The position numbers and the translations under genes were made by a program. From Calditrichaceae bacterium (GTDB taxonomy: Bacteria; Calditrichota; Calditrichia; Calditrichales; JBFXGD01), in NCBI GenBank assembly GCA_050173015.1, contig JBFXLE010000010.1:46841-110840 (forward strand): a DNA stretch of 64,000 nucleotides, written 5' to 3'. This document shows, one piece after another, positions 3,549 through 47,640 of this stretch. Each line of letters starts with the position of its first letter. Position 1 is the stretch's first letter. The notes beneath the pieces were generated by a model that worked only from the letters and a program-made list of their open reading frames with translations, was not told the origin of the DNA and made no database searches.

Positions 3549-3629
3549 ATATCTCAATAACTTTTGGTTGTGATTTGTTGTTAACGCGGGACGATATCAT
3601 CTAAGTTTCGGATCTCAGTAAAAATCTGG

Positions 3630-4094
3630 CTAATGTATGGTATTGGATCCCAGTTGGTAGAAAAATCCTTCATAAAAATTACCCGGATCAGCGCCCAATA
3701 CCATTGATGCTGTGATACTCTTAATATCATCCAGTGTGATATTGGTTGTCCCCAGCGATAATGATTTCTCGATCGCGGATTCAATCCCCGATTCGTCCAG
3801 AATACCTAACTGCCATAACTGCAGAAGATACCCGTATGCATCAGGTGATACAACCAGTTTTTCAAGTTCGTGTAAAACACGGATCGATTTCCCGCTATAC
3901 TGAAACTCGGCTTTTTGCGGAGCCTGTTCTTTTTGCAAATGATTAAATATCCAGGAAAAAGCTATGTTTATTTCATTTTCGGTATAACCGCGTGATCTTA
4001 GTTCTTCCGATAAATCAACATAATTTTCGTCTGAGTGCTGGTGCTGAAATTCACCCATCAGGTACACTATTATCTCAATAATTCGTTCTTGCAT
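3630..4094 (-). CDS. smg: Smg protein (DUF494 family)
   Basis: 154 aa. The length, acidic composition and pattern (..IIVYLM..; RV..E.E.L....GYLL.L.Q.GIL....E..IE.....LDD.K......L) resemble E. coli Smg. Position next to topA is the classic synteny. Confidence 0.65.
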   Translation of the reverse strand: MQERIIEIIVYLMGEFQHQHSDENYVDLSEELRSRGYTENEINIAFSWIFNHLQKEQAPQKAEFQYSGKSIRVLHELEKLVVSPDAYGYLLQLWQLGILDESGIESAIEKSLSLGTTNITLDDIKSITASMVLGADPGNFYEGFFYQLGSNTIH

Positions 4095-4338
4095 CTGTTT
4101 CCTTATGTATAGTCCAAAAAAAACTACACTTTTGTTAATAAAAAATCAAGTCATTAAACCGTACATTATATAATTAGTTTCATTATAAATATATTGGATG
4201 AAAATATATCCGTTTTGTGACAAATATTCCTTTTTATGTCAGGATACCTGAAAAGACAAAAAATAATGAAGAAAAAAATATCCGGCAAAGTTACCTCTGC
4301 CGGATCAAAAATACAATCATGCCATATCGAAATCAAAT

Positions 4339-5028
4339 TTAATCACTTCCCCATGTGCCCCCTGCAATTTCATTCCCGGAGCTATTATACTTCTTCCACC
4401 ATCCGTTGCCACTTGAATCCCAATGTGATTCAAAGAGAAGATTGCCGTTATTGTAAATAAGGAAACTGCCGCTACCATCGGCGTTTGCTGTCGATTCATG
4501 GCTGAACATTCCAAAATTGAAAGTACAAATCACGTTGCCATCGTCATCCGTTTCACAGGAAGAGACAAAAGCCACCTCTTCAGAGTTCATCTGATAAAAT
4601 GTCCAGGATGATGATTTCCTGTCACCGCTTTGATACCCCTCCATGGCCAGCCAGTTGTCATACATCAATATGCCGATTGACCCATCAAGAATCATTTGCC
4701 AAACAATCGAATCATCATCTCCGACCGTGGCCTTTATGGTTATCGTAAGATCGTTATTCGTGCTTGTCCAAACCCATGTATCACCGTCTCTCACGGCATC
4801 TATGTCGTCAAAAATATTGCCAATCCACAGCATCCACGGTCCGAGCATCACGCCTGTGTACTGAAATTCGGTGTAAACTTCCGGTGGCGCGTCTGTCGGC
4901 GGCGAGGCCAGATTCAGATTTGGCAGTGATGGCGGTGTGTCTTTGTTGGAATTTCCTGAAGTACTATCTGAGCAGGAATAAATGGTGAATGCCGAAAATA
5001 TAAAAGCTAAAATGATTAACTTTTTCAT
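4339..5028 (-). CDS. hypothetical lipoprotein
   Basis: 229 aa. Signal peptide with lipobox (AFTIYS-C-SDS). I recognise no family. Confidence 0.6.
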   Translation of the reverse strand: MKKLIILAFIFSAFTIYSCSDSTSGNSNKDTPPSLPNLNLASPPTDAPPEVYTEFQYTGVMLGPWMLWIGNIFDDIDAVRDGDTWVWTSTNNDLTITIKATVGDDDSIVWQMILDGSIGILMYDNWLAMEGYQSGDRKSSSWTFYQMNSEEVAFVSSCETDDDGNVICTFNFGMFSHESTANADGSGSFLIYNNGNLLFESHWDSSGNGWWKKYNSSGNEIAGGTWGSD

Positions 5029-5094
5029 AAAGATCCCCCCCGGCTTCTTATATGGTAAGATAATTGCTGTTGACTAAAATCAAAATGACATTTG

Positions 5095-6777: not shown

Positions 6778-6885
6778 ATATTTTTATTTAAACCTCCGGT
6801 CCTGTTCAAAATCATGTTTTTAAATTTAGGTAAAAACATCCGTAATGATAATCTATGAATTTAAAAGTTTATAATCAAAGCTACT

Positions 6886-9882
6886 TTACAATCTTAAAAT
6901 GGGAAGATCAGAGAGGTCACCTGAACTTGTCATTTCCTTTAAAAACGGGGACGACTTCTGCATCTTGCCAAATCGGTTTTTGACTGCTGTCAGGATAACT
7001 TCTTTTCTTGCTCTCGTAATCCCGACATAAAGAAGTCGTTTTTGTTCTTCCAGTTTTTTGGCGACGGGACGGTTATCCTGATCATCTTTTTTATAGGCAA
7101 AAAAGCTGGGCATGGTATCATCTTCCAGCCCCTGAATGATCACATGGTCAAACTCCAGTCCCTTTGCGGAATGATATGTGAGGAGAGAAACGGCATCAAT
7201 ACTTCCAAGACTATCCTGTGGATTTATCAGCAGGATAAACGATAAAAATTCAGCTATTGCCTGATCGACAGGCTGATGTTTGAACTGATCGGCAATTTCA
7301 AGCATTCGTTTGAACGCGTCATCTTTCATGTCATATGCCGTAATGCCCGTCATCACCTGCTCTGCTCTGCTGCGTATTTTTTCCCTTAATTCCGCTTCCG
7401 AATAATTAAATCTAACGGCAAATTTGCTCAATATTTCTGAATAGGGCGAGAGCAATTTACGCGCGCCCGAAGCAAAAAATATCCGGTCTTCAACGGCCAC
7501 CAGTTTGTCTTCCAGTAAATTTCCCAGGGCAACATACTCGGTAAGATTTTCCCCGGCGATCCTCATCTCCCTTTTTATGGCAACCTGGTGCATTTTCTGA
7601 ATAATTTCATGCAGTACGCGCACATCGTCCAGCGCTCTATGTCTGTTCCCGGGATCAAGCTTAAACCGGTCCGCCAGCGCGTCAATCGAATTTTGCTTAG
7701 CTGGATATAAGTGGCGGGCGAAAACAAGTGAATCATAACGTGTGTTCGGAAGCCGGTCATTTAGCAGGCCGCGTGAATACCGGTCGATTATTTTAAAATC
7801 AAAACTGTATCCGTTATGTGCAATCAATAAATCATTTCCGGCAAAATCGATCATTTTTTTAATAGCTGTTTTCATGTCGGGAGCATCTCTGATATCTTCT
7901 TCGGTGATATGGTGTACCGCCTGCGCTTCCGGTTCGATAGGCATGCCGGGATTAACCAGGATTTGAAACTCATCCGTGATTATAGAATCACGTACACGGA
8001 CGGCCGCGATTTCAACAATCGCGCATTTTTCTGGATCTCTTCCGGTTGTTTCCAGGTCAAACACCACATAATCCCTAAAAAATGGCGTGCGGGACTGTTT
8101 CAGGCCTGACTGCATTCTTCGAAAAAGCGTAGAAATCGAACCCTTTCTCTTTTCATCAGTTTTATCGTGCAAAATTTCTACTTCGCAGGACAATTTTTGG
8201 TCATTCATAGGCGACAGCAAAATTACCACATCCATAGGATTGATATTGATAATATTCTCATTTTTTAAAACATGAACGCGGTTTTGGTATAACAGCTGCA
8301 GCATTTGACAGCCGACAAAAGACAATTGCTCGTTCGTGTGATATACCCAAATTTGCGCCTTCGGATTTCTGGCTTTATTGTTTTCCCTGAAAGCAACATC
8401 GGTTATCTTCTCTACATTATGTTCCAGCATGGTTTTTTCCATGTCCTTTGAGCTGCGTAATATTTCCAGCACCAGGCTGTCAAACTTGTAAAATGATTTC
8501 AGATTCACAAGATTCGCGATGTTTCCGATAAATGCATTTGTTCTCCTTCGAATATCAGATCCGATTTCAGCCCGGTTTGAGAAATCGTTCAAAGCCTTCC
8601 TGAAAGTAGATTTCTCTCCTAAATTCTGATAATTCTGAATCTGTTTGTATATGTGATGTCCCAGCTCTATTTCCACCAGCTCTTCAAGGACAAGATTATC
8701 GGCCGGATTTCTGATGAGCTTCAGATACGATAAGAGGCGAACCATTTTTGGCTGATCAAGTAGATTTTTTCCGGATGCCTGTTGATAGGGAATTCTTTCT
8801 TTCAGTAACCTGACGGCAATCTGGTCGCCAAACCGGTGCTGAGGATAGATGATGGCTATCTCGGAGTAATCCGCCTTTTGCGCTGTGTGCCATTCATCTA
8901 TTTTTTTTACTATAAATTCGATCTCTTTCCCCTCTTCTTCAAACAAAGCTACCTGTATCAGATCCTCTTTTTGCGCGTCCGGAATGATAACTTTGTCCGG
9001 CTCAATCCTGTCCGTCGATTTCACGATGGCTTGAGCCGCCCGGGTGATTTTTTCTCCGCTTCTGTAGTTAACTTCGAGAAACACCGGTTCTTCTATTAAA
9101 AAATCATCCATATACTGGCGTATATTTTCCGGATTGGCGCCCCGCCAGGAATAAATTGACTGATCGTCATCAGCCACGACAAAGATATTGCGATGTTTTT
9201 CGGCAAGCATTTTGATAATCTGATACTGAACCAAATCCGTATCCTGAAATTCATCAACGAGAACGGATTGATAGAGAAACCGATACTGATCCAGAATATC
9301 CTTATTTGCCTTTAGAAGAGAAAGCGTTTTGACAAGAATTTGATTATAATCGATAAGGCCGTGTTTTTGGAGATGATTTTCATACTTTTCATAGACCATG
9401 GCCGAAAAAGACGGCAGAGGATTGCCTTTTAACAGGAAATTTGAGAACGCCAGCTGAATGCCTTTGACTACTCTTTCCGGATTTTCCCTAACCTTACCGC
9501 TTATCAGGCTTTTTAGAAGACGATTCTGATAATCATCATCACATATGCTAAAATATTTACTTAATCCCGCGGGTTCATGGTATTTTCTAAGAATATCAAG
9601 ACAAAATGAGTGGATGGTTCCGGTCCTTACTTTCTCCGCCTTCGAATCCAGTATCTTTGTTAATCGCAGTTTTATTTCACCCGCGGCTTTATTGCTGAAT
9701 GTGAGGGCCAGGATGTTTTCAGGGGGGATATTGTAATGATGAACTTCATAAACAATCCGCGCGATCAGAGCCCTGGTTTTTCCGGTTCCGGGTCCCGCTA
9801 TCATCAGCACCGGCTGTCGCGGCGCGGTCACCGCCTTTAGCTGACTTTTGTTTAATTCATCTAAAATTTTCCTGACTGACAT
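6886..9882 (-). CDS. UvrD/PcrA-type SF1 helicase with an internal DnaQ-like DEDDh 3'-5' exonuclease domain
   Basis: Helicase motifs I (AGPGTGKT), Ia, II (VDEFQDTD), III (ADDDQSIYSWRGA), IV (VNYRSG), V (TYHSAKGLEFDHVII) and VI (LLYVGITRARKEV) are all present. Between IV and V lie Exo I (VFDLETTG), Exo II (HNGYSFDF) and Exo III (HRALDDV). The ORF opens with TTG at 9924; ATG at 9882 (MSVRKILDELN) is the likelier start. Confidence 0.85.
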   Translation of the reverse strand: MSVRKILDELNKSQLKAVTAPRQPVLMIAGPGTGKTRALIARIVYEVHHYNIPPENILALTFSNKAAGEIKLRLTKILDSKAEKVRTGTIHSFCLDILRKYHEPAGLSKYFSICDDDYQNRLLKSLISGKVRENPERVVKGIQLAFSNFLLKGNPLPSFSAMVYEKYENHLQKHGLIDYNQILVKTLSLLKANKDILDQYRFLYQSVLVDEFQDTDLVQYQIIKMLAEKHRNIFVVADDDQSIYSWRGANPENIRQYMDDFLIEEPVFLEVNYRSGEKITRAAQAIVKSTDRIEPDKVIIPDAQKEDLIQVALFEEEGKEIEFIVKKIDEWHTAQKADYSEIAIIYPQHRFGDQIAVRLLKERIPYQQASGKNLLDQPKMVRLLSYLKLIRNPADNLVLEELVEIELGHHIYKQIQNYQNLGEKSTFRKALNDFSNRAEIGSDIRRRTNAFIGNIANLVNLKSFYKFDSLVLEILRSSKDMEKTMLEHNVEKITDVAFRENNKARNPKAQIWVYHTNEQLSFVGCQMLQLLYQNRVHVLKNENIININPMDVVILLSPMNDQKLSCEVEILHDKTDEKRKGSISTLFRRMQSGLKQSRTPFFRDYVVFDLETTGRDPEKCAIVEIAAVRVRDSIITDEFQILVNPGMPIEPEAQAVHHITEEDIRDAPDMKTAIKKMIDFAGNDLLIAHNGYSFDFKIIDRYSRGLLNDRLPNTRYDSLVFARHLYPAKQNSIDALADRFKLDPGNRHRALDDVRVLHEIIQKMHQVAIKREMRIAGENLTEYVALGNLLEDKLVAVEDRIFFASGARKLLSPYSEILSKFAVRFNYSEAELREKIRSRAEQVMTGITAYDMKDDAFKRMLEIADQFKHQPVDQAIAEFLSFILLINPQDSLGSIDAVSLLTYHSAKGLEFDHVIIQGLEDDTMPSFFAYKKDDQDNRPVAKKLEEQKRLLYVGITRARKEVILTAVKNRFGKMQKSSPFLKEMTSSGDLSDLPILRL

Positions 9883-13156: not shown

Positions 13157-13693
13157 ATGAGCAAGGAATTTAAGAACCATCATTCAAATAAATTAGCGGG
13201 ATTTACAAAAGGCTCCATTCTTCTGAGCGCTATTGCCGGATTAACGGTTGGTCAGGCGCCGGAGAATGTCTTTGCCTATTCACCGCTGGGATCGGGAAGC
13301 GAAGTGAGAGAAGCGCTTTCATCTCTGAATAACGCGCCTAAAGCGCCGGCAGAACTCAAATGCGCGGGAGAGACTAAGAAATCCGCGGAGAAAAAAGCCG
13401 ATGCCAAACATGAGGCAAAGGAGATGAAGGATGCAAAAGCGGCCGAGGCAAAATGCGGTGAAGGGAAATGCGGCGAATCTAAAGCCGATATGAAAAAAGC
13501 CGGCGCGATAAAGGACAGCGCGTCAGTAGAATCGAAGGCGGCCGAAGCTAAGTGTGGTGAGGGTAAATGCGGAGAGGGAAAGTGCGGTGAGGGTAAAGCT
13601 TCCGATAAAAAGGCTGTAGATAAAAAAGCCGATGCGGTTAATGATTCAAAGGCAGCGGAAGCCAAGTGTGGCGAAGGTAAATGCGGACAATAA
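13157..13693 (+). CDS. secreted Cys-repeat (EGKCG) precursor protein, HvfA-like putative RiPP metallophore substrate
   Basis: 178 aa. Sec-type signal (GSILLSAIAGLTVG...VFA|YS). The mature part is Lys/Ala/Glu-rich with 8 Cys (aa 69, 100, 105, 133, 138, 143, 171, 176); seven sit in AEAKCGEGKCG(EGKCG) blocks. Synonymous codon variation between the blocks argues for selection on the peptide. It lies directly upstream of the DUF692 and DUF2063 genes. Confidence 0.8.
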   Translation: MSKEFKNHHSNKLAGFTKGSILLSAIAGLTVGQAPENVFAYSPLGSGSEVREALSSLNNAPKAPAELKCAGETKKSAEKKADAKHEAKEMKDAKAAEAKCGEGKCGESKADMKKAGAIKDSASVESKAAEAKCGEGKCGEGKCGEGKASDKKAVDKKADAVNDSKAAEAKCGEGKCGQ

Positions 13694-13702
13694 TTATTCT
13701 TT

Positions 13703-13743
13703 GGGCAGGCATTTCTATCCGCCTGCCCGATTTTTATTTTTTT
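13703..13743 (+). terminator. intrinsic terminator/attenuator between the precursor and maturase genes
   Basis: Stem GGGCAGGC (13703-13710) / GCCTGCCC (13721-13728), 10-nt loop, then the T-rich tract GATTTTTATTTTTTT. AGGAG and the next ATG follow immediately. Confidence 0.6.
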
Positions 13744-13760
13744 AAGGAGTGAGGCCTATA

Positions 13761-14594
13761 ATGATCAAGGGAGCCGGTTTGGGATTCAGGCGGCACCTTG
13801 CCGACGATCTGATTGGCGCGGAGAAAAACAAACCGCAGTTTGTGGAATTCGCGCCTGAAAACTGGATGGGCATGGGCGGCTACTGGGGTAAAAAATTAAA
13901 AGCCGTAGTCGAAAAATATCCGATTATCAACCACGGGTTATCACTTTCCATCGGAAGCCCCGAACCGCTGGACTGGGATTTCCTGAAAGATCTAAAGAAA
14001 TTTTTTAATGAATTCCCTGTACAGATTTATTCAGAGCATTTGAGTTACAGTAAATGCAACAATGCTCATTTATATGACCTTTTGCCTATCCCCTTCCGCG
14101 AAGATGCTGTACGCCATATCGTTGACCGTATCAGACAAATCCAGGATTTTCTTGAACGGCCCATCGCTATCGAAAATGTTTCTTATTATACACCGGTCGC
14201 GGCGGAAATGGATGAAATTACTTTTATTAATACAATTGTTAATGAATCCGGCTGCAACCTTCTTCTCGACGTTAACAATGTTTATGTCAACGCCTTCAAT
14301 CATCAATATGACGCCAAGGAGTTCATAAGCGGAATTCCTCTTGATAAAGTCGTTTATATCCACATGGCGGGTCATGAACAGGTCAGTCCGGACCTGATTA
14401 TAGATACACACGGCCAGCCCATTATAGATCCCGTATTTGATTTATTTGAATGGACAATCGAAAGAGTTAAACCGGTTCCGGTACTTCTGGAACGTGATTT
14501 TAATATTCCTGAATTTGACGAACTGCAGGTTGAGTTAGGCCGTCTGCAGTCATTAATGGAATTGAAATGGGAAGCTCAAAATGTTGTTGCGTGA
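13761..14594 (+). CDS. DUF692/UPF0276 family multinuclear non-heme iron oxidase (MNIO; MbnB/HvfB/BufB-like peptide maturase)
   Basis: TIM-barrel-type family motifs are present: GLGFRR, YSEHLSY, AIENVSYY, LLLDVNNVYVNA, YIHMAGH, VLLERDFN. The track ORF starts at GTG 13749; ATG 13761, preceded by AGGAG (13745-13749), is the likelier start. Confidence 0.85.
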   Translation: MIKGAGLGFRRHLADDLIGAEKNKPQFVEFAPENWMGMGGYWGKKLKAVVEKYPIINHGLSLSIGSPEPLDWDFLKDLKKFFNEFPVQIYSEHLSYSKCNNAHLYDLLPIPFREDAVRHIVDRIRQIQDFLERPIAIENVSYYTPVAAEMDEITFINTIVNESGCNLLLDVNNVYVNAFNHQYDAKEFISGIPLDKVVYIHMAGHEQVSPDLIIDTHGQPIIDPVFDLFEWTIERVKPVPVLLERDFNIPEFDELQVELGRLQSLMELKWEAQNVVA

Positions 14595-15333
14595 AGAAAC
14601 CCGTCAAATACAAAATGAGCTTGCGGACTACTGCCGCAGCGGTGTACCCCGTCCAATCAAAGGGGCTAAAGCGGATCGTTTGCACCACTACCGGAGACTG
14701 GTCTTCAATGTCATCAACGGTACCCTCGAAACCGCCTATCCGGTAACTCGTCAGATATTACCCGAGGAAGACTGGACTCAGATGGTGAATGACTTTTTTA
14801 TCAACCATAATCCTCAGTCTCCGCAGGTCTGGAAGATGCCTTATGAATTCTATATTTTCTGTTCAGAAAACAAATATTCTGAAAAATTTCACCGCCCTTA
14901 TCTGACTGATTTGCTGTATTTTGAATGGATCGAGATTGAAGTACACACGATGGAGGACCTGATCATTCCGCCGTTTCAATCCGAAGGTGATTTACTTGAG
15001 AGCCCGCTCATCATCAATCCTGAGTTCCGGCTGATCCGATTAACTTATCCCGTACACAAATTCTCTTCTGATGAACTTTCCGCGAATGCCGGTGATTACT
15101 TTATCCTCTGTTACCGGGAACAAAAAAATCTGTCTGTAAGATTTTTTGAGTTTTCCTCGTTTTTCGCGGTGGTGTTTGAGAAACTAATTAATAATCGTAT
15201 TTCAGGAAAAGAAGCGTTAGCCGAAGCGGGAATGCTTTTCGACATTCATGACGAACAGGTATTGCTTCAAAACGGACTGCCATTTTTTAACGATTTGTTT
15301 ACTCAGGGTATCATTCTTGGTTTTGCCCCCTAG
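14581..15333 (+). CDS. DUF2063 family protein (MbnC/HvfC/BufC-like MNIO partner)
   Basis: 250 aa. The N-terminal pattern ...LQ.ELA.Y.R......I.G....RL..YRRLVFN.I.G.LE.AYPV.R..L is typical of DUF2063. It overlaps the MNIO gene by 14 nt, suggesting translational coupling. Confidence 0.75.
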   Translation: MLLREETRQIQNELADYCRSGVPRPIKGAKADRLHHYRRLVFNVINGTLETAYPVTRQILPEEDWTQMVNDFFINHNPQSPQVWKMPYEFYIFCSENKYSEKFHRPYLTDLLYFEWIEIEVHTMEDLIIPPFQSEGDLLESPLIINPEFRLIRLTYPVHKFSSDELSANAGDYFILCYREQKNLSVRFFEFSSFFAVVFEKLINNRISGKEALAEAGMLFDIHDEQVLLQNGLPFFNDLFTQGIILGFAP

Positions 15334-38268: not shown

Positions 38269-38544
38269 GTTTTGCATATCCGCGTGACAGATGAAATGGG
38301 TTATCTGCCTTTAGACCGTAATGTCACCAATCTCTTTTTTCAGTTGGAATCCCTCGTTACGAAAGGATCTATTATCCACACCGGCAATAAAAGTTACCTG
38401 GATTGGGGAATGCTGTTTCCGGACGAAGGGATTGTTGCGGCTATTTTAGATCAATTGTTTCATTATTCCAAAACGGTAAAAATCACCGGTCAATCATACC
38501 GCCTGGCGATGAAAAAGAAGGTGGGACTTTTTGAAAATAAGTAA
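38269..38544 (+). pseudogene. istB: IS21-family IstB (ATP-binding helper) C-terminal remnant
   Basis: The translation ...DEMGYLPLDRNVTNLFFQL...KGSIIHTGNKSYLDWGMLFPDEGIVAAILDQLFHYSKTVKITGQSYRL matches the C-terminal ~90 aa of IstB (..DE.GY.PLD...ANLFFQL...YE.GS.I.TSN..F..W...F.D......A.LDRL.HH......G.SYRL). The Walker A/N-terminal part, istA and inverted repeats are all absent. Confidence 0.7.
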
Positions 38545-38613
38545 AAATTTTTAACCAAAAGCGGGGAGTTTTAAATTCCGTTTTTTGGGGAAATGTAAAT
38601 TCCTCTTGACAAG

Positions 38614-38684
38614 GGATGAAATCTATGTAGAAAAACAGACACCACACCATTCCGCGGCCCCATAGGGGTCGAACAATTACAGCC
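38614..38684 (-). repeat. REP-like repeat copy A (TTCTACA module plus GC hairpin)
   Basis: GGATGAAATCTATGTAGAAAAA...CCGCGGCCCCATAGGGGTCGAACAATTACAGCC. It is homologous to copy B (38799-38869) and to 45427-45478 in the opposite orientation. Confidence 0.6.
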
Positions 38685-38798
38685 AAATCCCCATTTATAC
38701 AAAGATGTGACGCCTCGGGCGTCAGGTGTTTATCATATAACCAATATTTATACATCAACCCCGGGATTTAAACGCAACCGTCATTCCCAATCCCGGAT

Positions 38799-38869
38799 GG
38801 ATGAAATTTTTGTAGAATGATTAACACCAGACGAGTCCGCGACCCCGCAGGGGTCGTACAATTACCGCC
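38799..38869 (-). repeat. REP-like repeat copy B (TTCTACA module plus GC hairpin)
   Basis: GGATGAAATTTTTGTAGAATGA...CCGCGACCCCGCAGGGGTCGTACAATTACCGCC, with a perfect 6-bp hairpin GACCCC-GCA-GGGGTC. Confidence 0.6.
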
Positions 38870-40232: not shown

Positions 40233-40985
40233 TTATAGTTTATTTTTATGAATCAATGATATTTCTTCATAAGAAATTGAACCGGCAAAAATTTCATACC
40301 CTTTTTCATTTAATTTTTTTATTATTTCTTTGGATTTATAATTATTTAAATCAAAGAGCCTGTCATGAAACTCAACGAGTATTTGATCAATGGTGACTGT
40401 AGAATCCAGTATTTTTTCCAGCACGGTGTATTCGGAACCTTCAATATCCATTTTTAGAACATCGATATGCTGATGCCCTAATTCACCGGTAATTTCATCA
40501 AACAATTTCATTTTAACTTTTATCGAATTCTTTGGATTTACACCATTTATTTTAATTAGACTGCCGGATATCCCTTTGGGATTGGCGGGTAAGTAGAAAT
40601 CCACAAGGCCCGATTTTAAATCACTTATACCCCAATCAAAAAAAGTGAACAAATCAGACAGTTTTTTGTTTTTGATATAGTTTATTGATAGTGGGGTTGG
40701 ATCAAACGCAAAAATCTTACAGTTGTGCTTTTTTATACAGGTCAGGTCAAATGAGATATCTTTTCCAATTCCAAATGAATAGATAATAGAATCAGATGAA
40801 AGCAATTTAGGATTGACATAGAAACCTCCATAGCTGCTCCCATACCATTCATAATCACAATTTACCGTGTTCACTAAATGGGCTACTTTTTTCTTATCTA
40901 TTTGCTCAGAGAGAAGTTTTTTTCTTTTTTTAGACGCGTAATTTAATCTGGCTGAATTGATTATATTTTTAATTTTTTCTATCAT
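40233..40985 (-). CDS. FkbM family methyltransferase
   Basis: 250 aa. IDVLKMDIEGSEYTVL is the hallmark FkbM motif (lK.D.EG.E..vL). The gene is visibly AT-rich. Confidence 0.75.
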   Translation of the reverse strand: MIEKIKNIINSARLNYASKKRKKLLSEQIDKKKVAHLVNTVNCDYEWYGSSYGGFYVNPKLLSSDSIIYSFGIGKDISFDLTCIKKHNCKIFAFDPTPLSINYIKNKKLSDLFTFFDWGISDLKSGLVDFYLPANPKGISGSLIKINGVNPKNSIKVKMKLFDEITGELGHQHIDVLKMDIEGSEYTVLEKILDSTVTIDQILVEFHDRLFDLNNYKSKEIIKKLNEKGYEIFAGSISYEEISLIHKNKL

Positions 40986-41006
40986 ATAAATAAATTTACT
41001 ATTGGT

Positions 41007-41918
41007 TTAATCAAATACATTGTATTTTCTCTTAACATATTTTGCGCCCCAAAATGAAGTAAGATAATATGCCAAAGTTTTTAAATTTAGCTGAGACCGC
41101 AGGAAAAAAAATCTCGCTGTCTGCATATTATTCATCAGGTAATAATAACGCGCTATTGTTCCATGAATTTTTTTATACGAAGTTTTTACTTCTTTAGGAT
41201 AAACATTCATAAAGCCTTCAATAAACATAAGTGAGAAATAAAAATCTTTTCTGCGATAATCTTCATTCAGAGATAAATTAGTATCCGTCACATATCGATT
41301 ATATAATGAATCACATATCTCAATGGATGCTTTTTCATGAAACAGTCTCAAAATCCAATCGAAATCAACTATCCCAAAAACTTCTTCAAAAAGAATATCT
41401 TTCAGTTCTTTCCTATATATGATACCGCTTAAATACGTGTTTTGACCGGCTAATGATTTCGTTAATCTGTTTAAAAAGGTTGTGTTTGATTCAAAATATA
41501 AAAAATCAACTTTCGATTTGTTTATTTTATCGATTTTTCTATTCTCTTTTTCATTGATGACAGAATGCCCGGATGTGACGATAGGAACTTTCTCTAAATA
41601 GGGTAATTGTGAAAGTAATCTGTTTTCTTTCCATTCATCATCGTGATCAACGATACAGATATAGTCTCCGGAAGATTTTTTTATACCCATGTTTCGTCCT
41701 TTATTAGGGCCGCCGGAGTTTTTATCATTAGTTAATAAAAGTAGATCATAATTTTTAACTATCTCAACCGTTTTATCGGTCGAGCAATCATCAACTACAA
41801 TCAATTCGATATCAAATTCTTTTCGAAGACCTTTTTGATTTAAAATAGAATCCAGGGTTCTTTGAATGGTTTTTTCCGAATTGTATGTTGTAATTATTAC
41901 AGAAACTAATTTTTTCAT
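41007..41918 (-). CDS. family 2 glycosyltransferase
   Basis: 303 aa. VSVIITTYNSEKTI...LIVVDDCSTD...DHDDEW are GT-A fold GT2 motifs (DxD-type). Visibly AT-rich. Confidence 0.85.
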   Translation of the reverse strand: MKKLVSVIITTYNSEKTIQRTLDSILNQKGLRKEFDIELIVVDDCSTDKTVEIVKNYDLLLLTNDKNSGGPNKGRNMGIKKSSGDYICIVDHDDEWKENRLLSQLPYLEKVPIVTSGHSVINEKENRKIDKINKSKVDFLYFESNTTFLNRLTKSLAGQNTYLSGIIYRKELKDILFEEVFGIVDFDWILRLFHEKASIEICDSLYNRYVTDTNLSLNEDYRRKDFYFSLMFIEGFMNVYPKEVKTSYKKIHGTIARYYYLMNNMQTARFFFLRSQLNLKTLAYYLTSFWGAKYVKRKYNVFD

Positions 41919-42320
41919 CTTGTTTTTATCATACTTTATTAGCTGGATGCATTCAACGGGTTAAACTGACTATACTATTTATTTTATTTTAATAAAAATC
42001 ATCAATGGAATTCTATATTGTTTGCAGTACCTTTTTCGATATTTATATATAAATCTCTCTAAATTTCGAATCGGATTCTCCAAATACCATTGAATATATC
42101 TCAATTCCGTTTCTTGTTCAAGCAGTGAGTAAAACCCATGTCTTAGCTGACGCTATTTTTCAATTTTCCGGTCACCAATGTTCATGGTGTTTTATTATAA
42201 GCTGCAGTTTCTTCATTGTCTGAACTATGACCTGTCCGACTGTTATTTACTCTTTTTCTTTTTTCGTTTATCTTTTTTCTTAAGCTTCTCACGTCCTGCT
42301 TAGGCACGAACATCGTGCTC

Positions 42321-43680
42321 CTGCTCTTAACTCTTACACTCTATTCTCTTAACGCTCTTTAATTCTCACTTCCTACTTTTCTTCTTCTTCCTACTTCTTA
42401 CTTATATTCTTCCCGAGAAAGCAGAAGATCCTTCCAGGATGACTTTTCGGGAAGGCTGGATAAGGCATCTACTCTTAACTCTTACACTCTTTTCTCTTAA
42501 CGCTCTTTAATTCTCACTTCCTACTTCTTACTTCTTACTTTTCTTCTTCTTCCTACTTCTGACTTTTATTCTTCCCGAGTAAGCAGAAGATCCTTCCAGG
42601 ATGACATTTCGGGAAGGCTGGATAAGGCATCTACTCTTAACTCTTACACTCTATTCTCTTAACGCTCTTTAATTCTCACTTCCTACTTCTCACTTCCTAC
42701 TTTTCTTCTTCTCCCTACTTTTTGAATGGCCAAAAAGTAGCAAAAAGCCCTGGCGAATTTTAACTCGTTTAAATTTTTCCGTTTTTCTCATTCATCCACT
42801 CAGACAGAAAATTCGCCCCGAAGAATCATTTTTTCTACATCCTTCCAAGGTAGCCAAAGATGCCTTCGGCATGACATTTCGGGAAGGCTGGATAAGGCAT
42901 CTACTCTTAACTCTTACACTCTTTTCTCTTAACGCTCTTTAATTCTCACTTCCTACTTCCTACTTCTTACTTTTCTTCTTCTTCCTACTTTTTGAATGGC
43001 CAAAAAGTAGCAAAAAGCCCTGGCGAATTTTAACTCGTGTAAAAATTAACCGTTTTTCAATTTACTCCACTCAGACAGAAAATTCGCCTCGAAGAATCTT
43101 TTTTTCTACATCCTTCCAAGGTAGCCAAAGATGCCTTCGGCATGACATACGGATAGATTAACCGGTTTCACCGCGGTTGACTATGACATCGCCTGCCCGG
43201 ATTCAGACACCCCCACTCTTAACTCTTTTCTCTTAACGCTCTTTAATTCTCACTTCCTACTTCTTACTTCTTACTTTTCTTCTTCCTACTTCTAACTTTT
43301 ATTTTTCCCGAGTAAGCAGAAGATCCTTCCAGGATGACATTTCGGGAAGGCTGGATAAGGCCCCTACTCTTAACTCTTACACTCTTTTCTCTTAACGCTC
43401 TTTAATTCTCACTTCCTACTTCCTACTTCTTACTTTTCTTCCTCCCTACTTTTTGAATGGCCAAAAAGTAGCAAAAAGCCCTGGCGAATTTTAACTCGTG
43501 TAAAATTTAACCGTTTTTCAATTTACTCCACTCAGACAGAAAATTCGCCCCGAAGAATCATTTTTTCTACATCCTTCCAAGGTAGCCAAAGATGCCTTCG
43601 GCATGACATTTCGGGAAGGCTGGATAAGGCCCCTACTCTTAACTCTTACACTCATTTCTCTTAACGCTCTTTACTTTTCA
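42321..43680 (+). repeat. mosaic non-coding tandem array: 7 copies of a ~90-nt pyrimidine-rich core alternating with two linker types
   Basis: Cores (CTACTCTTAACTCTTACACTCT.TTCTCTTAACGCTCTTTAATTCTCACTTCCTACTTC...) start at 42321, 42469, 42631, 42901, 43214 (partial), 43364 and 43634 (partial). The short linker S1 (~65 nt; hairpin CTTCCCGA...TCGGGAAG) follows cores 1, 2 and 5. The long linker S2 (~180 nt; 9-bp and 10-bp inverted repeats) follows cores 3, 4 and 6. A unique insert lies at 43142-43213. The track shows no ORF of 60 aa or more in any frame across 41919-43683. Confidence 0.9.
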
Positions 43681-43683
43681 TTC

Positions 43684-44532
43684 TTATACTTCAATAAATC
43701 TCATAAATAGAAATATCAACAGGCCAAGGGTTGCTCCCAGATATATCCGGCGGATATATTTTCTTCCCTCTTCATTGGTGGATTTCACCAATCGCATAGA
43801 GGGATAAGCAATCGCGATATCCATTATTAAAATTGGTATCAAATAAACCATTGGAAACCAAGCCAATATAAATGGAACCATGGTTAGAAAAACAACAAAA
43901 AAGAAAATGGAGCTGCTTATTTGTAGCGCTGTTTGTTTTCCATATTTAATCGCCAGCGAATTTGAATCAATCAGAAGATCTCCCTGCATATCCATAGAAT
44001 CGGCTGCGATTTCTTCTCCTAAATCTATTAAGGCGGCGATGACGCCAAAAAACCAGACCATTTTATTAAAGGGTAAACCAACGGATACACCACCAAAAAT
44101 AAATGTCATCCCCACAGAAAAACTTACCATTAAATTTCCCGGTAACCCGCTTTTTTTAAATTTTCGGTTATAAAGAAATCCAATAATTGACAGTATAATT
44201 ATACAAATTAACGCTGTTAAACCAAGCAAATATCCAAGAATTATGCCGAGCGATAAAAGAATTATAGATAGTAATAGCGCTTCCTTCAGGGTAACAAGGC
44301 CTGAAGGTATGGGCCGGCCGGGTGAATTTATTTTATCCGTTTCAACATCGAAATAGTCATTTAATACCAGTATGGAGGCGGAAATAAAAAAGACCGCAAA
44401 AAAGGCGAATATTGTTTCAGAAGGGGATGCAAATCTTCCCAGGGCCAGCAACTGCCCCATAACAACACAGACACCTGCGGAAAATGGAAGTTCAAAACGC
44501 ATTAAACCGAATAGCCCTTTAATATTCTTCAT
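43684..44532 (-). CDS. UbiA-superfamily aromatic/polyprenyl prenyltransferase (DGGGP-synthase-like)
   Basis: 282 aa with about 8-9 TM segments. First Asp-rich motif LNDYFDVETDKINSPGRPIPSG, second acidic motif ...DLGEEIAADSMDMQGD. Confidence 0.8.
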   Translation of the reverse strand: MKNIKGLFGLMRFELPFSAGVCVVMGQLLALGRFASPSETIFAFFAVFFISASILVLNDYFDVETDKINSPGRPIPSGLVTLKEALLLSIILLSLGIILGYLLGLTALICIIILSIIGFLYNRKFKKSGLPGNLMVSFSVGMTFIFGGVSVGLPFNKMVWFFGVIAALIDLGEEIAADSMDMQGDLLIDSNSLAIKYGKQTALQISSSIFFFVVFLTMVPFILAWFPMVYLIPILIMDIAIAYPSMRLVKSTNEEGRKYIRRIYLGATLGLLIFLFMRFIEV

Positions 44533-44947
44533 AACCCTTCCACAAATTTGTTTGCAATGGTTTTTGTATGTGAGGCGGAATTTAGAATTCCCCGCTTGCT
44601 AAAGAAAGATTAAATTTCCTCCGTACCTGATCAATAACAGCAATATAGATGATTTAGGATAAGCCGGAGGAATATATGGAAATTTTTAAGCTAAAGGAAC
44701 AGGTTTTGATAATTTTCCTTATCAGCGGAAAAGATTCACCGGATCGCGAAAGTTGGACCAACACAGAGAACACCGAAAACAATGCCGGCGCCGAAAAAGC
44801 AGCATCGGAAAATATGATGTACATTACACCACTCCGGGTTTCCCCGAAGAACATATATCGCCCCTGTCAAAAAGAAATTCCGGGAAGAGAGGGTATCATT
44901 TTCCCGGAAAGTTTTAACCAAATACACCGATAGGAATTGACAGACCT

Positions 44948-45180
44948 ATTCCGGAGGGGAGCCTGAAACCGCGGAGGGAAGGGTCACATTCCGGAGGGAA
45001 GGTTCAAACTTCGGAGGGAAAGGGTACAATACCGGAGGGGAGCGGTCAAACTTCGGAGGGAAGGCGAAAAACTCTGGAGGGGAGGGGTATATTCCCGGAG
45101 GGAAGGGTAAAACTGTGGAGGGGACGCCTAAAATACCGGAGGGGAAGGTCAAAACAGGAAGGGAAGGGTAAAAATCGATG
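44948..45180 (+). repeat. eleven tandem ~20-22-bp repeats with a GGAGGG(R)A(R)GG core
   Basis: Units start near 44951, 44970, 44989, 45011, 45031, 45051, 45074, 45094, 45115, 45136 and 45157. The consensus is roughly YCGGAGGGRARGGKYMAAAMY. Confidence 0.9.
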
Positions 45181-45202
45181 CGCCGGGGGAAAATAATCAT
45201 AG

Positions 45203-45363
45203 CCCCGATCTTTAGATCGGGGATAAGGAGAAACCAAATAATGATGGGCTTCAGCTCAAATTTGGCTAAATCCATTTATATACGGAAATAAAATAATCCA
45301 CGAGCTGAAGCTCGTGGCAATGAGATTAAATTCCTGATCATTGCCACTATCTTTAGATAATGG
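45203..45363 (+). repeat. three covarying 8-bp-stem tetraloop hairpins (CCNNNNNC-loop-GNNNNNGG)
   Basis: CCCCGATC-TTTA-GATCGGGG (45203-45222), CCACGAGC-TGAA-GCTCGTGG (45298-45317), and CCACTATC-TTTA-GATAATGG (45344-45363, one mismatch). A degenerate fourth copy lies at 45399-45418. Confidence 0.7.
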
Positions 45364-45426
45364 ACCGGAAGCCCGGGATGGCTGGAGTATTTTGGATTCC
45401 ACGGGCTAAAACTCACGGCACAGGAT

Positions 45427-45478
45427 CGCGTGGGGTCTGTTTTTCTACAATGATCATCCCTTTGGAATTGGGAAACGG
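45427..45478 (+). repeat. REP-like repeat copy C (TTCTACA module)
   Basis: CGCGTGGGGTCTGTTTTTCTACAATGATCATCCCTTTGGAATTGGGAAACGG aligns with the reverse complement of copy B (..GGGGTCGCGG...TTCTACAAAAATTTCATCCATCCGGGATTGGGAATGACGG). Confidence 0.55.
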
Positions 45479-45644
45479 ATTGATGCGTTTTGTTAACTAC
45501 CTGGTTATCATAAACCTCTTGAAATTTTCATGCCGGTTGTTTATAATGGTAACGATTCTTGTATAGGATATTATTTTTTTTAACATTAGAGTAAAACGAT
45601 AATTAACAGGGACGTCTAATCAATATGTTAGTGGCTTCAATTTT

Positions 45645-45740
45645 GTCTCAGATGGCTGAAATGGCAAGGCATAACTGGAAACCAAGCCTGTTAAGCTTGG
45701 TGATAAGGTTACATTGCAGGTTCGAATCCTGCCTGGGGCA
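45645..45740 (+). ncRNA. tRNA-like element (non-canonical; Asn-type anticodon loop, canonical T-arm, oversized D and variable regions)
   Basis: T-arm GCAGG-TTCGAAT-CCTGC. A 7-bp acceptor-like helix GTCTCAG/CTGGGGC (2 G-U pairs) is extendable by TTTTGT/ACAAAA. Stem-loop CAAGC-CTGTTAA-GCTTG (anticodon GTT). The 5' region is about 11 nt too long, the variable region is 16 nt, and position 8 is A rather than U. Confidence 0.4.
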
Positions 45741-45780
45741 CAAAATGTAATATTTAAGAGGGAATGAATTTAATTTTTCT

Positions 45781-45948
45781 ATGAATATTTTTTTTCTACC
45801 ACTAGGTGACGGTGATGAAATTGGCACCAGCAGTTATTATTTACAAATTGGTAATACAAAATTATTATTAGATGCCGGAATAAGGCTAAAGGCATCGTCT
45901 GTTTTTCCAAAATATAACTATTTATATAGTAAGCCTCCCTACTCTTAG
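45781..45948 (+). pseudogene. truncated N-terminal fragment of an MBL-fold/beta-CASP-type hydrolase gene
   Basis: A 55-codon ORF (below the track cutoff) reads MNIFFLPLGDGDEIGTSSYYLQIGNTKLLLDAGIRL..., which fits the beta-CASP/MBL N-terminus (..LG...EIG.S.Y.L.....LLLD.G). It ends before any HxHxDH motif, exactly where the core-like repeat (CCTCCCTACTCTTAGC) begins. Confidence 0.55.
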
Positions 45949-45954
45949 CTTTTT

Positions 45955-46010
45955 TACTTCCTACTTCTTACTTCTTACTTCCTACTTCTTACTTCCTACT
46001 TCTTACTTTT
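45955..46010 (+). repeat. heptanucleotide microsatellite (TACTTCY)x8
   Basis: TACTTCC TACTTCT TACTTCT TACTTCC TACTTCT TACTTCC TACTTCT TACTTTT. The same heptamer tract is embedded in every core of the 42.3-43.7 kb array. Confidence 0.9.
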
Positions 46011-46018
46011 TCTCCTCC

Positions 46019-46047
46019 TTGACATCCCATCATAAAACGGGTAAATT
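46019..46047 (+). promoter_or_regulatory. candidate sigma-70 promoter of yigZ
   Basis: TTGACA (46019-46024), 17-nt spacer, TAAATT (46042-46047). It lies 45 nt upstream of ATG 46092 and immediately downstream of the heptamer tract. Confidence 0.4.
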
Positions 46048-46091
46048 TTTTTCTAATTTGCCAGACGTTCTTATAACATAGATCCGGAATT

Positions 46092-46709
46092 ATGAACACA
46101 GAAAACCTATCGGCCGATGAATATCTTGTACCGGCAATGACGGCCAACGCTGAAATCAAAGTCAAGGGTTCCCGATTTATTGCCGCCATTTTTCACGCGG
46201 AGACAAAGGAATCCGCCGAAGAACAGGTTCTGATTTTAAAAAAGACAAATTATAACGCGACTCATAACTGTTTTGCTTACAGGATCGATGGCAATCTCTT
46301 CCGGTATTCAGATGACGGCGAACCCTCAGGGACCGCCGGGAAGCCCATTTTACAAACAATTGACGGTCAGAATATATATGAAGTATTGTGTGTGGTGACT
46401 CGATACTTCGGCGGCACAAAACTGGGAACGGGCGGCCTGATACGGGCTTACTCGGAGGCGGCGGCAGAGGCTTTAAAACAATTGCGGTTAAAAGTGAAGG
46501 TCCGATCTGAACTAATCCGTCTGGGGCTGCATTATGAGCAGGAGAACATCATCCGGAATCTGTTGAATGAATTTAACGGGAAAATTGTGGACAGTGACTA
46601 TACCGATCAGATTAAAATGGATGTCTCTATCCCGGAAAGCCTGCGCCGGAATTTTGTAGAACGACTCACCGAAATCACACATTCAACCGTCACTGTGAAA
46701 TCCCTTTAA
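46092..46709 (+). CDS. yigZ: YigZ family protein (IMPACT/UPF0029)
   Basis: 205 aa. ...IKVKGSRFIA..., ATHNCFAYRI and DDGEPSGTAGKPIL are the conserved IMPACT-N motifs. Confidence 0.85.
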   Translation: MNTENLSADEYLVPAMTANAEIKVKGSRFIAAIFHAETKESAEEQVLILKKTNYNATHNCFAYRIDGNLFRYSDDGEPSGTAGKPILQTIDGQNIYEVLCVVTRYFGGTKLGTGGLIRAYSEAAAEALKQLRLKVKVRSELIRLGLHYEQENIIRNLLNEFNGKIVDSDYTDQIKMDVSIPESLRRNFVERLTEITHSTVTVKSL

Positions 46710-46728
46710 TTAAAAACAAGAGAGTCCC

Positions 46729-47640
46729 ATGGAAGAACGGATTTTAGAAGTCAGCAACGTTAAGAAGTCTTTTTCCGGTAATCTTGTCATTGATAATTTG
46801 TCTTTTAAAGTCAGCGGCGGAGAAACTTTCGGGCTTCTCGGGCCGAATGGCGCCGGTAAAACCACCATGATGCGCATGATAATGAATATGATCATGCCGG
46901 ATGAGGGTGAAATTCTTTATAACGGAAAGCAGCGACGCAAACTCAAATCGCTTCACTTTGGTTATCTTCCTGAAGAACGCGGTTTGTATCCCCGCGCGAC
47001 GGTCCTCGAAATGCTGGTTTATTTCGGAACGCTCAACAATCTTTCCACCCGAAAAGCGGAAGTGGAGGCGATTCGGTATCTTGACAGGCTTAGTATCGTT
47101 GAATTTACGGACACGCGCGTGAATCAGCTCTCGAAAGGTATGCAACAGAAAATCCAGTTTATCGCCGCGTTTTTGCATAACCCGGATGTTCTCATTCTTG
47201 ATGAACCATTCGCCGGGCTTGATCCGATCAATCAAATTGTGCTCAGGGATATACTTAATGAATACAAAAATGACAACAAGATTCTGATTTTATCCACACA
47301 CCAGATGGATCATGTGGAAAAACTATGCGACCATATCTGTCTGATGAATCAGGGTCAGGTTATTCTTGACGGCAGCATGGGGAACATAAAAAAATATTAC
47401 CGAGAAAACGCCTATTCAGTTGAGGCCGATACATCGCTGGCGTTTCTGCATGATTTAAATGAAATAAGCATATTGGAAGAAAACAGCAACGCTTATAAGT
47501 TTAAAATGAAACCGTCAAATGGTTCTGTCAGTCAGTTAATCACAAAGATCAGCCAGAAAGCCCGAATCAAAAAATTTGAAGTGGTCGAGCCTTCCCTGCA
47601 CGATATTTTTCTCAAACTTATTCAGGAAAAAAACAAATAA
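46729..47640 (+). CDS. ABC transporter ATP-binding protein (ABC-2/NatA-like)
   Basis: Walker A GLLGPNGAGKTT, signature LSKGMQQK, Walker B ILILDEPFAGLD, H-loop STHQM. Confidence 0.9.
   Translation: MEERILEVSNVKKSFSGNLVIDNLSFKVSGGETFGLLGPNGAGKTTMMRMIMNMIMPDEGEILYNGKQRRKLKSLHFGYLPEERGLYPRATVLEMLVYFGTLNNLSTRKAEVEAIRYLDRLSIVEFTDTRVNQLSKGMQQKIQFIAAFLHNPDVLILDEPFAGLDPINQIVLRDILNEYKNDNKILILSTHQMDHVEKLCDHICLMNQGQVILDGSMGNIKKYYRENAYSVEADTSLAFLHDLNEISILEENSNAYKFKMKPSNGSVSQLITKISQKARIKKFEVVEPSLHDIFLKLIQEKNK

Follow-up and report, generated by a model that had tools for sequence, protein, structure and literature searches.

The 64,000-nucleotide stretch of Calditrichaceae DNA analysed here (the window) carries, between a UbiA-family gene and a YigZ gene, an array of 11 short G-rich direct repeats whose core sequence and spacing appear to be under selection. 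The reading that we tentatively favour, while placing it somewhat short of an even chance, is that these repeats would be phased protein-binding sites on DNA, comparable to plasmid iterons or partition centromeres and lodged within a strain-variable non-coding cassette. What is new here is the confirmation of the array by independent assemblies, a polymorphism in the number of its units, and a near-identical strain that is free of the entire segment; also new are a homologous array in a second genomic context and a statistical signature of selection on the core and its spacing.

44948..45180, plus strand: repeat array of 11 direct repeats, 19-21 bp each (mean ~20.4), delimited from the sequence, Tandem Repeats Finder and pattern counts

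Each unit consists of a core, (Y)(C)GGAGGG-R-A-R-G, followed by 3-4 variable nucleotides and then by an A-rich patch, T[C/A]AAA[C/T], with the AAA located ~10 nt after the G patch. All units are arranged head-to-tail, the purine-rich strand being the plus strand, and the cores start at 44953, 44973, 44993, 45013, 45034, 45055, 45076, 45097, 45117, 45138, and 45157/8, that is, with core-to-core spacings of 20, 20, 20, 21, 21, 21, 21, 20, 21, and 19-20; unit 11 is degenerate (GGAAGGG). Tandem Repeats Finder reports a period of 21 with 8.4-8.5 copies and 66% matches, along with periods of 41-42 and 62 at higher matches (74-80%). When three phased GGAGGGRA cores are used as a pattern, 8 matches are obtained vs 0.00 in 100 shuffles, and GGAGGGRARGG with one mismatch allowed yields 10 matches vs 2.9 expected, every one of them within the array. 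A contig assembled independently by Logan from SRR27751817 is 100% identical to window 43624-45301, so the array is real sequence rather than an assembly artefact. The sequence-only reading of this DNA, which had described eleven phased ~21-bp units with a G-rich core and an A-rich tail, is thus confirmed by the core positions, Tandem Repeats Finder, the shuffles, and the independent contig. The octamer GGAGGGRA occurs 10 times in the 64-kb window and never outside the array; a KOPS/SRS-like FtsK-orienting motif, GGGNAGGG, fits some of the units and was considered, but elsewhere in the window is found only once on the plus strand and twice on the minus strand. Given that GGAGGGRA is confined to the array and GGGNAGGG is scarce beyond it, no genome-wide skewed motif is indicated. 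A literature search on GGAGGG direct repeats returned nothing useful.

Related sequences were sought through homologues of UbiA and YigZ and by one metagenome pattern scan. One of these, a Logan contig from ERR1358766 (L214), is 98.7% identical to window 43644-45983 and, over 44039-45983, differs only by the loss of one unit and a single-nucleotide polymorphism at 45165 (A>C). Because the unit that is lost is exactly unit 2, the copy number of the array evidently changes by whole units.

44972..44991, plus strand: unit 2, exactly missing in L214 (10 units there vs 11), from the alignment

In another near-identical strain, represented by the metagenome-assembled genome (MAG) GCA_041629375.1 (L122), the match to the window is 97-99% and covers 43589-44545 and 45960-47007 only; 44546-45959 is missing, and 340 bp of unrelated sequence stand in its place. 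The array is therefore dispensable, and the segment that carries it is variable.

44546..45959, strand not assigned: strain-variable non-coding segment of 1.4 kb, from the alignment with L122; it holds the array, REP-like (repetitive extragenic palindrome) hairpins, a copy of the D element, a tRNA-like remnant, and a short open reading frame (ORF)

These two strains, one with a unit fewer and one without any, bear out the earlier suggestion that the array belongs to something accessory. At a greater distance, the Calditrichaceae MAG GCA_050178385.1 (L123; ~83% nucleotide identity) matches the upstream region of UbiA up to 44892, where its contig stops 56 bp short of the expected array, whereas its YigZ-side contig ends in composite repeats (see below); more distant UbiA loci (~78% amino-acid identity) have no such array.

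The homologous array came from the pattern scans. A permissive three-core scan of genome collections gave at least 120 loci, of which those listed are nearly all unrelated GC-rich or coding repeats, and a specific two-unit pattern gave 83 single matches in metagenome contigs, about the number expected by chance, one of which is a true homologue; in viral contigs, the specific pattern recovered nothing similar, and plasmid and phage collections contain no match. The homologue, on contig JACDJA010007938.1 (L168; 35% GC), comprises ~12 units with the same core and the same 19-21-bp period, and ends in a degenerate unit, CAGGAAGGG, that is likewise the last one of the window array. The window and L168 share two further repeats, the hairpin motif U and the multicopy element D (85% identity), which implies that L168 comes from a related organism.

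44575..44595, plus strand: hairpin motif U, GCGGAATTTAGAATTCCCCGC, with related copies at 38561-38581 (minus strand) and beside the L168 array

45419..45480, plus strand: copy of the multicopy repeat D (...GTTTTTCTACAAnGAtnTCATCCCT...)

At both loci, the order is U, array, D, and a BLAST comparison of the window with L168 around the array aligns the array and D only. Units of three subtypes, core+GGGTAAAA, core+GGTCAAA, and core+GAGCC/ACGCC+TGAAA, are present in both arrays in different orders; unit-by-unit orthology cannot be claimed, the best unit matches not being collinear. A higher-order repeat structure is conceivable: 'GCC-type' units recur at each fourth position in the two arrays alike, and ungapped autocorrelation favours 41/82/123 in the L168 array and gives no clear signal in the window array. 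The gene context of L168 differs from that of the window, including an ImmA/IrrE-like peptidase and a Multiubiquitin/ThiF operon. The former is encoded by a gene of the ImmA/IrrE-family M78 peptidases (L168 924-1697, minus strand), and the latter (2835-5080, plus strand) encodes a Multiubiquitin-domain protein, a 116-aa protein, and a 472-aa ThiF/E1-like protein and, judging by these domains, looks like a bacterial ubiquitin-like conjugation operon of the defence type.

The case for constraint comes from an alignment of 22-23 units drawn from the window array and the L168 array. Across 22 units, the information content per position is 2.0 bits for the GGG of the core, 1.3-1.7 for GGA, ~1.5 for A11, 1.4 for G13, and 0.85-1.7 for the AAA patch, with 0.1-0.4 bits in the flanks. 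The whole GGAGGG block (6 nt) accumulates 6 mismatches, whereas single positions in the most variable parts of the flanks have 9-14 each, the distribution of mismatches is non-uniform (chi-square 70.9, 18 degrees of freedom), and 0 of 100,000 simulations under a uniform model produced as clean a 6-nt block. Outside the core, divergence per site amounts to 0.49 and 0.56 inside the two arrays and 0.53 between them; because within-array divergence is about the same as that between arrays, the units have not been homogenised by concerted evolution, and the array must be old. Along with the G-rich core and the spacing of G and A patches, a unit length of 19-21 bp and a number of 10-12 units have been kept in two contexts on an AT-rich background. 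It is from the contrast between a near-invariant core and flanks that differ at about half of the sites, within as well as between arrays, that selection on core and spacing is inferred.

The same observations bear on the possibility that the array is a repeat without any host function, a passenger of an intergenic mosaic rich in REP elements, miniature inverted-repeat transposable elements (MITEs), and insertion sequences (IS), which would be maintained and moved about by recombination and in which the conservation of the core reflects nothing but propagation. This is an explanation that we consider unlikely but take seriously. The surroundings, with their REP-like hairpins, D, heptamer composites, and tRNA-like remnant, along with an IstB fragment elsewhere in the window, are what it would lead one to expect, and so are the dispensability of the array, its great rarity in the public collections searched, and the breakage of assemblies around it; the difference in copy number between strains (10 vs 11) is likewise a feature of neutral minisatellites. 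Such a minisatellite, however, is expected to be either uniformly diverged or homogenised, and the units are neither (the chi-square value of 70.9 given above is at odds with even divergence): a near-invariant core alternates with flanks that differ at about half of their sites. A recent neutral minisatellite would, on this comparison, look different from the array. Furthermore, the retention of unit number and length in two contexts, and the survival of G-rich cores in an AT-rich background, count against this explanation. The sequence-only reading had proposed that absence of the array from all related genomes would mark it as a neutral minisatellite; a homologous array is present in L168.

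Under the DNA-platform reading, the 10-12 phased sites on double-stranded DNA would bind a sequence-specific, probably oligomerising, protein. Each unit would present a 10-nt purine core, GGAGGGRARG, and then the A-rich patch one helical turn on, with neighbouring units two helical turns apart; given this geometry, the conserved patches would lie on approximately one face of B-DNA, with a slow rotational drift along the array, the mean period being ~20.4 bp rather than 21. By analogy with plasmid iterons or a parC site, the platform would work through many copies of the protein binding co-operatively, and recombination between cores would add or remove whole units. The cassette is a REP/MITE-rich, strain-variable non-coding segment of Calditrichaceae chromosomes. 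That the ligand is a protein, and that it reads DNA rather than RNA, we infer from the pattern of constraint: the helical phasing (19-21-bp units, with ~10 nt separating the G patch from the A patch) appears to be maintained, which favours a DNA ligand over an RNA sponge. The presence of the L168 homologue in a different gene context and the one-unit difference in copy number also seem to count for a DNA platform, as do the lack of coding, Rfam, and RNA-structure signal and the like architecture of a real iteron origin in Acinetobacter bereziniae (see below for both). Downstream roles that can be envisaged would include titration of an initiator, pairing, partition of an element since lost, or silencing.

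Several observations weigh against this reading. The Pfam scan, which covered most window ORFs of 120 aa or more, revealed no gene of the Rep or ParA/ParB/ParR kind and none typical of plasmids or phages, and neither these ORFs nor L168 contain a ParM/TubZ or ribbon-helix-helix (RHH) gene; more generally, the 5.3 kb of L168 hold no candidate binder gene. No DnaA box TTATCCACA with at most 1 mismatch is found within 44400-46150, and no AT-rich unwinding region adjoins the array, the AT fraction ranging from 0.48 to 0.69 without a sharp block. The plasmid and phage collections, as already mentioned, yielded no match. Moreover, the array is seen in only two lineages, so that the conservation argument amounts to 22 units, and tandem duplication accounts in part for the 20-21-bp period, which is thus not itself proof of helical phasing. 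The context is chromosomal, and yet the 1.4-kb segment is strain-variable and the L168 copy sits in defence-island-like surroundings. Thus, of the iteron-like platform originally proposed, the fit to core, spacing, and an A patch one turn on has held up as the best among the readings, whereas the Rep or Par gene, DnaA box, and unwinding region that would go with it are missing; with these absent nearby and the context chromosomal, the array falls outside the known iteron and par systems.

An RNA that carries the same motifs is the other major alternative. In Rfam 15, nothing reaches the gathering score across the window, and nothing meaningful appears at E <=5 in 42000-46200. Compared with shuffled sequences, the plus strand of the array has a fold z-score of -1.7, its minus strand one of +0.8, and the L168 homologue one of -0.7: neither strand folds better than shuffled sequence, there are no recurring hairpins, and the only helix predicted to be stable when the array region is folded is a hairpin that lies beyond the last unit.

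45204..45223, strand not assigned: REP-like hairpin, CCCCGATCT-tta-GATCGGGG, 25 bp past the last unit, from the sequence

It is conceivable, although in our judgement rather unlikely, that the plus strand is transcribed into an unstructured RNA decoy whose 11 GGAGG(G) motifs titrate a CsrA/Rsm-type protein or the anti-Shine-Dalgarno (anti-SD) sequence of the 30S subunit. Every unit does contain a perfect or near-perfect SD-like GGAGG, and all cores are on one strand; since SD-like sequences occur at about half of the window genes, the organism uses SD sequences; and the plus-strand RNA is predicted to be near-unstructured (z = -1.7, few centroid pairs), leaving the motifs accessible. CsrB has ~18-22 sites in ~360 nt, and the 20-nt spacing of the array is close to the distance between sites that a CsrA dimer can bridge. 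Nevertheless, the decoy finds no Rfam match even at E <=5, conserved hairpin loops that would display the motifs are lacking, the window and L168 have neither a promoter nor a terminator in common around the array, and a plus-strand promoter scan upstream of the array gave no convincing signal. Two L168 units have AGA for GGA, with GGG invariant, unlike CsrA sites, and strict spacing is not a known requirement of a sponge. A CsrA signature was not found in the six-frame translation of the 64 kb, which represents a genome fragment, and a literature search on Caldithrix and CsrA found nothing. The lack of structure, of a conserved promoter or terminator, and of an Rfam match, together with a GGA that is not invariant, leaves the plus-strand GGA/SD sponge of the sequence-only reading unsupported.

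Still less probable, to the point of being very improbable, is a minus-strand regulatory RNA or a long 5' leader of UbiA in which 11 CCCUCC anti-SD-like motifs would pair with SD sequences. The array does lie on the upstream side of UbiA, in the orientation of that gene and 416-648 nt from its start codon, and the unit sequence is complementary to GGAAGGG, the ribosome-binding site of UbiA. Against this, the array is immediately preceded on the minus strand by two terminator-like hairpins, which makes the earlier minus-strand anti-SD proposal weak; one hairpin with a T-rich tail looks, from its sequence, like an intrinsic terminator that would halt minus-strand transcripts ahead of the array.

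45298..45317, minus strand: terminator-like hairpin, CCACGAGCT-tcag-CTCGTGG, then a T-rich tail on the minus strand

Furthermore, one strain has a 97%-identical UbiA without the array, the L168 array has no UbiA gene beside it, and the minus strand, at z = +0.8, folds no better than shuffles. A G-quadruplex role, also raised by the sequence-only reading, fares poorly as well: the array contains no G3 motif with loops of <=7 nt and a single one with loops of <=12 nt, its G4Hunter-type score is at most 1.4, and the second G-tract (positions 12-14) is poorly conserved. The formation of G-quadruplexes is, therefore, not the conserved property of the array.

Translation offers no better account. 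The C-rich strand is open across the array, and in L168, a 133-aa ORF on the corresponding strand likewise covers the array; a proline-rich heptad-repeat protein encoded on the minus strand would explain both, but we regard it as extremely improbable.

44946..45275, minus strand: ORF across the array, 109 aa, C-rich strand; spurious, not a gene

Because units of 20 and 21 nt alternate, a unit length that is not a multiple of 3, the core is read in all three frames, falling in frames 2, 0, 1, 2, 2, 2, 2, 2, 0, 0, and 1 of the 109-aa ORF. This ORF has no homologue among 5.8 billion proteins or, by full phmmer, in 1.84 billion cluster representatives, has no Pfam match, and is not among the gene calls on the independent contigs, and 44-57% of composition-preserving shuffles give an open minus-strand frame. 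A search of protein databases with the translated array, aimed at further arrays, found none. The array, then, is non-coding. The original observation that no credible gene explains it stands on the three frames, the two null protein searches, and the shuffles; the description of the minus-strand ORFs 44946..45275 and 45046..45237, with a repeat phase that drifts relative to the reading frame, was correct; and the conserved minus-strand PP-x-F repeat protein that would have spoken for a gene was not found.

A further idea, which is speculative and, in our estimate, decidedly doubtful, is that the array would be a new kind of chromosomal multi-site platform of Calditrichota without a replicon. 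It would then be either an orphan decoy for invading plasmids or phages, whose initiator or partition protein it would titrate, or the first CsrB-like sponge RNA of the phylum, made up of SD-like GGAGGG motifs. The orphan decoy is suggested by the contexts of the array, which are strain-variable and defence-island-like.

The locus as a whole is ordinary chromosome of an uncultured Calditrichaceae, and the taxon names of the nearest UbiA and YigZ homologues agree with this. The window encodes a XerD-like recombinase, TopA (topoisomerase I), RecJ, a UvrD-exonuclease fusion, and HolC, as well as an Mla transporter, ABC transporters, and peptidases tailed for the type IX secretion system (T9SS). 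The array lies within a 1.56-kb non-coding gap between the UbiA gene (43684-44532, minus strand) and the YigZ gene (46092-46709, plus strand), in a region of 35-40% GC; from left to right, the gap contains U, an 85-aa ORF, the array, the REP-like hairpins, D, a promoter, the tRNA-like sequence, a 55-aa ORF, and heptamers. The hairpins, the tRNA-like element, and the UbiA gene, all named earlier as neighbours of the array, were found correct on re-check. The features of the gap that have not been listed above are as follows.

44676..44933, plus strand: ORF of 85 aa with GGAGG as its Shine-Dalgarno sequence and its end 15 bp short of the array, from the ORF list

45338-45364, strand not assigned: REP-like hairpin, from the sequence

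45519-45547, plus strand: strong sigma-70-like promoter, TTGAAA-17-TATAAT, 11/12 matches, from a consensus scan

45645-45741, plus strand: tRNA-like sequence of 97 nt, called by ARAGORN as tRNA-??? with a 4-base anticodon

45781-45948, plus strand: ORF of 55 aa, MNIFFLPLGDGDEIGTSSYYLQIGNTKLLLDAGI..., which stops at the heptamer repeats

45938-46008, strand not assigned: TTACTTC heptamer block, from the sequence

The 85-aa ORF is predicted by gene callers in two Logan contigs; its frame stops after ~25 codons in the 83%-identical relative L123, and it belongs to no Pfam family, so it is probably not a conserved gene. The promoter is located ~100 nt upstream of the tRNA-like sequence, in which a perfect T-arm, GCAGGTTCGAATCCTGC, is combined with a long extra arm and an acceptor stem of 8 bp, two of them G-U. 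The match of this sequence to the Rfam tRNA model falls short of E = 5, and the sequence is missing from the near-identical strain L122; by these features, it is probably a tRNA remnant or a tRNA-like element. The 55-aa ORF resembles, by eye, the N-terminus of metallo-beta-lactamase-fold hydrolases, an impression that is unsupported, Pfam giving no match.

The multicopy element D, ~115 bp long, combines a GACGCC...GGCGTC hairpin with a second hairpin, CGACCCCTnnGGGGTCG, and with GTTTTTCTACAAAGATTTCATCCCTCCGGGATTGGGAA. Copies are found in the window at 38612-38726, 38788-38868, and 45419-45480, in L123 at 2640-2770 (the contig end), and in L168 at 1-124, with 80-86% identity between genomes, and the element looks like a lineage-specific REP/MITE-like repeat. 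Two of the window copies, together with a U-like hairpin, come right after an IstB remnant that sits between S8 peptidase and glyoxalase genes.

38272-38544, plus strand: C-terminal IstB fragment, IS21 family (PF01695, E = 2.7e-20, profile 155-237 of 238)

A comparable istB remnant at 44616-44930 (minus strand) and in the L168 flank, which would make the array an IS21 end, was considered and rejected: tblastn with the IstB fragment found none at E = 10, and neither did Pfam. On the other side of UbiA, 1.77 kb (41918-43684) are occupied by pyrimidine-rich composite repeats. These repeats (42250-43680 and 45938-46010 in the window, 1-1020 in the contig L216, and 990-1060 in L122) are made of runs of the heptamers ACTCTTA and CTTCCTA/CTTCTTA, carry a hairpin with a 30-nt loop, CTTCCCGAG...TTCGGGAAGG, form units of ~160-450 bp, and have no match in Rfam. 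About five copies lie downstream of UbiA, with a short block upstream of YigZ, where the 83%-identical MAG instead has its whole region taken up by four copies of ~295 bp. Metagenome contigs often terminate within them.

The UbiA locus differs in yet another respect between the window (40233-43684) and L123 (1212-1406). In the latter, UbiA is directly followed by a LysE gene, whereas in the window, genes for an FkbM-type methyltransferase and a GT2 glycosyltransferase, along with the 1.77 kb of composite repeats, intervene between UbiA and LysE, which on alignment is a second indel at this locus. The UbiA-family gene scores 289 bits with the NCBIfam prenyltransferase equivalog NF009523, above the cutoff of 269, and its product resembles the archaeal digeranylgeranylglyceryl phosphate (DGGGP) synthases. 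Its homologues at 70-78% identity come from MAGs of Calditrichia, Ignavibacteria, and Zixibacteria and also from archaea of the Methanosarcinales (Methanococcoides, Methanomethylovorans, and Methanolobus); such identity across bacteria and Methanosarcinales suggests that the gene moved recently between the two domains. Far from this locus, the window contains, at 13157-15333 (plus strand), an HvfA-type metallophore cluster of the ribosomally synthesised and post-translationally modified peptide (RiPP) class, which begins with a 178-aa ORF (an HvfA/KCGExKCG match to NF050188 below the cutoff, with a 15-nt repeat at 13550-13598) and continues with genes of the MbnB/TglH/ChrH family (PF05114, E = 8e-101) and DUF2063.

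If the array does serve as a platform for proteins, it would represent an iteron- or centromere-like element separated from any replicon and residing on a chromosome in a phylum of which little is known and few members are cultured. It would then offer a route to the reader protein and might bring to light a mechanism (titration, pairing, or silencing) that mobile elements in these bacteria employ or that is directed against them. Should the array prove to be an RNA sponge, the sponge principle would extend to Calditrichota. On the practical side, the array and the nearby repeat families break metagenome assemblies here, and annotators should therefore expect fragmented contigs.

Comparison with known systems finds partial likenesses to several families. 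Two further arrays share the GGAGGG core and are unrelated to that of the window. On the viral contig IMGVR_UViG_3300011008_002784 (L234), four 22-bp GGAGGGAACnnnnnnTTCCCAC repeats at 6820-6920 come right after a DnaA box, TTATCCACA, which suggests that they mark an origin, and on the Clostridia MAG contig JAFYMA010000183.1 (L011), five 21-bp GGAGGGGAGACCCTTTTATCG repeats at ~1400-1490 overlap a long ORF at its 5' end; the match of this ORF to an IS200-like family (Y1_Tnp) is weak. Antitoxin RNAs of type III toxin-antitoxin systems (ToxI is 5.5 x 36 nt) are also tandem short non-coding repeats in accessory or defence-type regions, as the genes of L168 recall, but the units of the array are shorter and not near-identical, and no toxin gene follows the array on the plus strand, where there are only hairpins, D, the tRNA-like remnant, and the 55-aa ORF that has no Pfam match. 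The sites of LytTR-type response regulators are 9-bp direct repeats, 12-13 bp apart, with a period of ~21-22 bp; the ~10-bp core, ~11-bp A/T-rich spacer, direct orientation, and 21-bp period of the array are alike, whereas such sites normally come in 2-3 promoter copies vs 11 here, and no LytTR gene was seen in the window. The CsrB/RsmZ sponges similarly have many GGA motifs every ~17-21 nt on one strand; the array departs from them in having no Rfam match, no hairpin display, and no defined promoter or terminator, and in its invariant GGG and rigid spacing.

The closest likenesses are with plasmid elements. The iterons of Rep_3-type replicons, such as the seven 22-bp repeats of the R6K gamma origin and the four 22-bp repeats of pPS10, are contiguous direct repeats of about two helical turns, in one orientation, with a G-rich core and then an A/T-rich part, as in the array. 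In Acinetobacter bereziniae (L062), recovered by the genome scan, five repeats of 22 bp, GGAGGGGAAAGGTATCTATAAT, form a genuine iteron origin: a Rep_3 initiator gene is 32 bp away, a gene for a ParA-type ATPase lies ~300 bp off on the opposite side, and their GGAGGG(G)AA(A)GG core is common with the window array. The array differs from Rep_3 iterons in its chromosomal housekeeping context, without a nearby initiator gene, DnaA box, or unwinding element, in its 11 units, which exceed the usual number, and in the conservation of the core and A patch only, where iterons are usually near-identical over their full length. Partition centromeres, namely, parC of pSK41 (4 x 20 bp), parC of R1 (10 x 11 bp), and sopC of F (12 x 43 bp), have adjacent ParA/ParM/TubZ or adaptor genes, unlike the array, which is not part of a recognisable plasmid or prophage; nevertheless, they resemble it in being made of many tandem direct repeats with a period that is a multiple of the helical repeat and in tolerating changes of copy number, and are believed to act by building up a co-operative filament or superhelix of protein.

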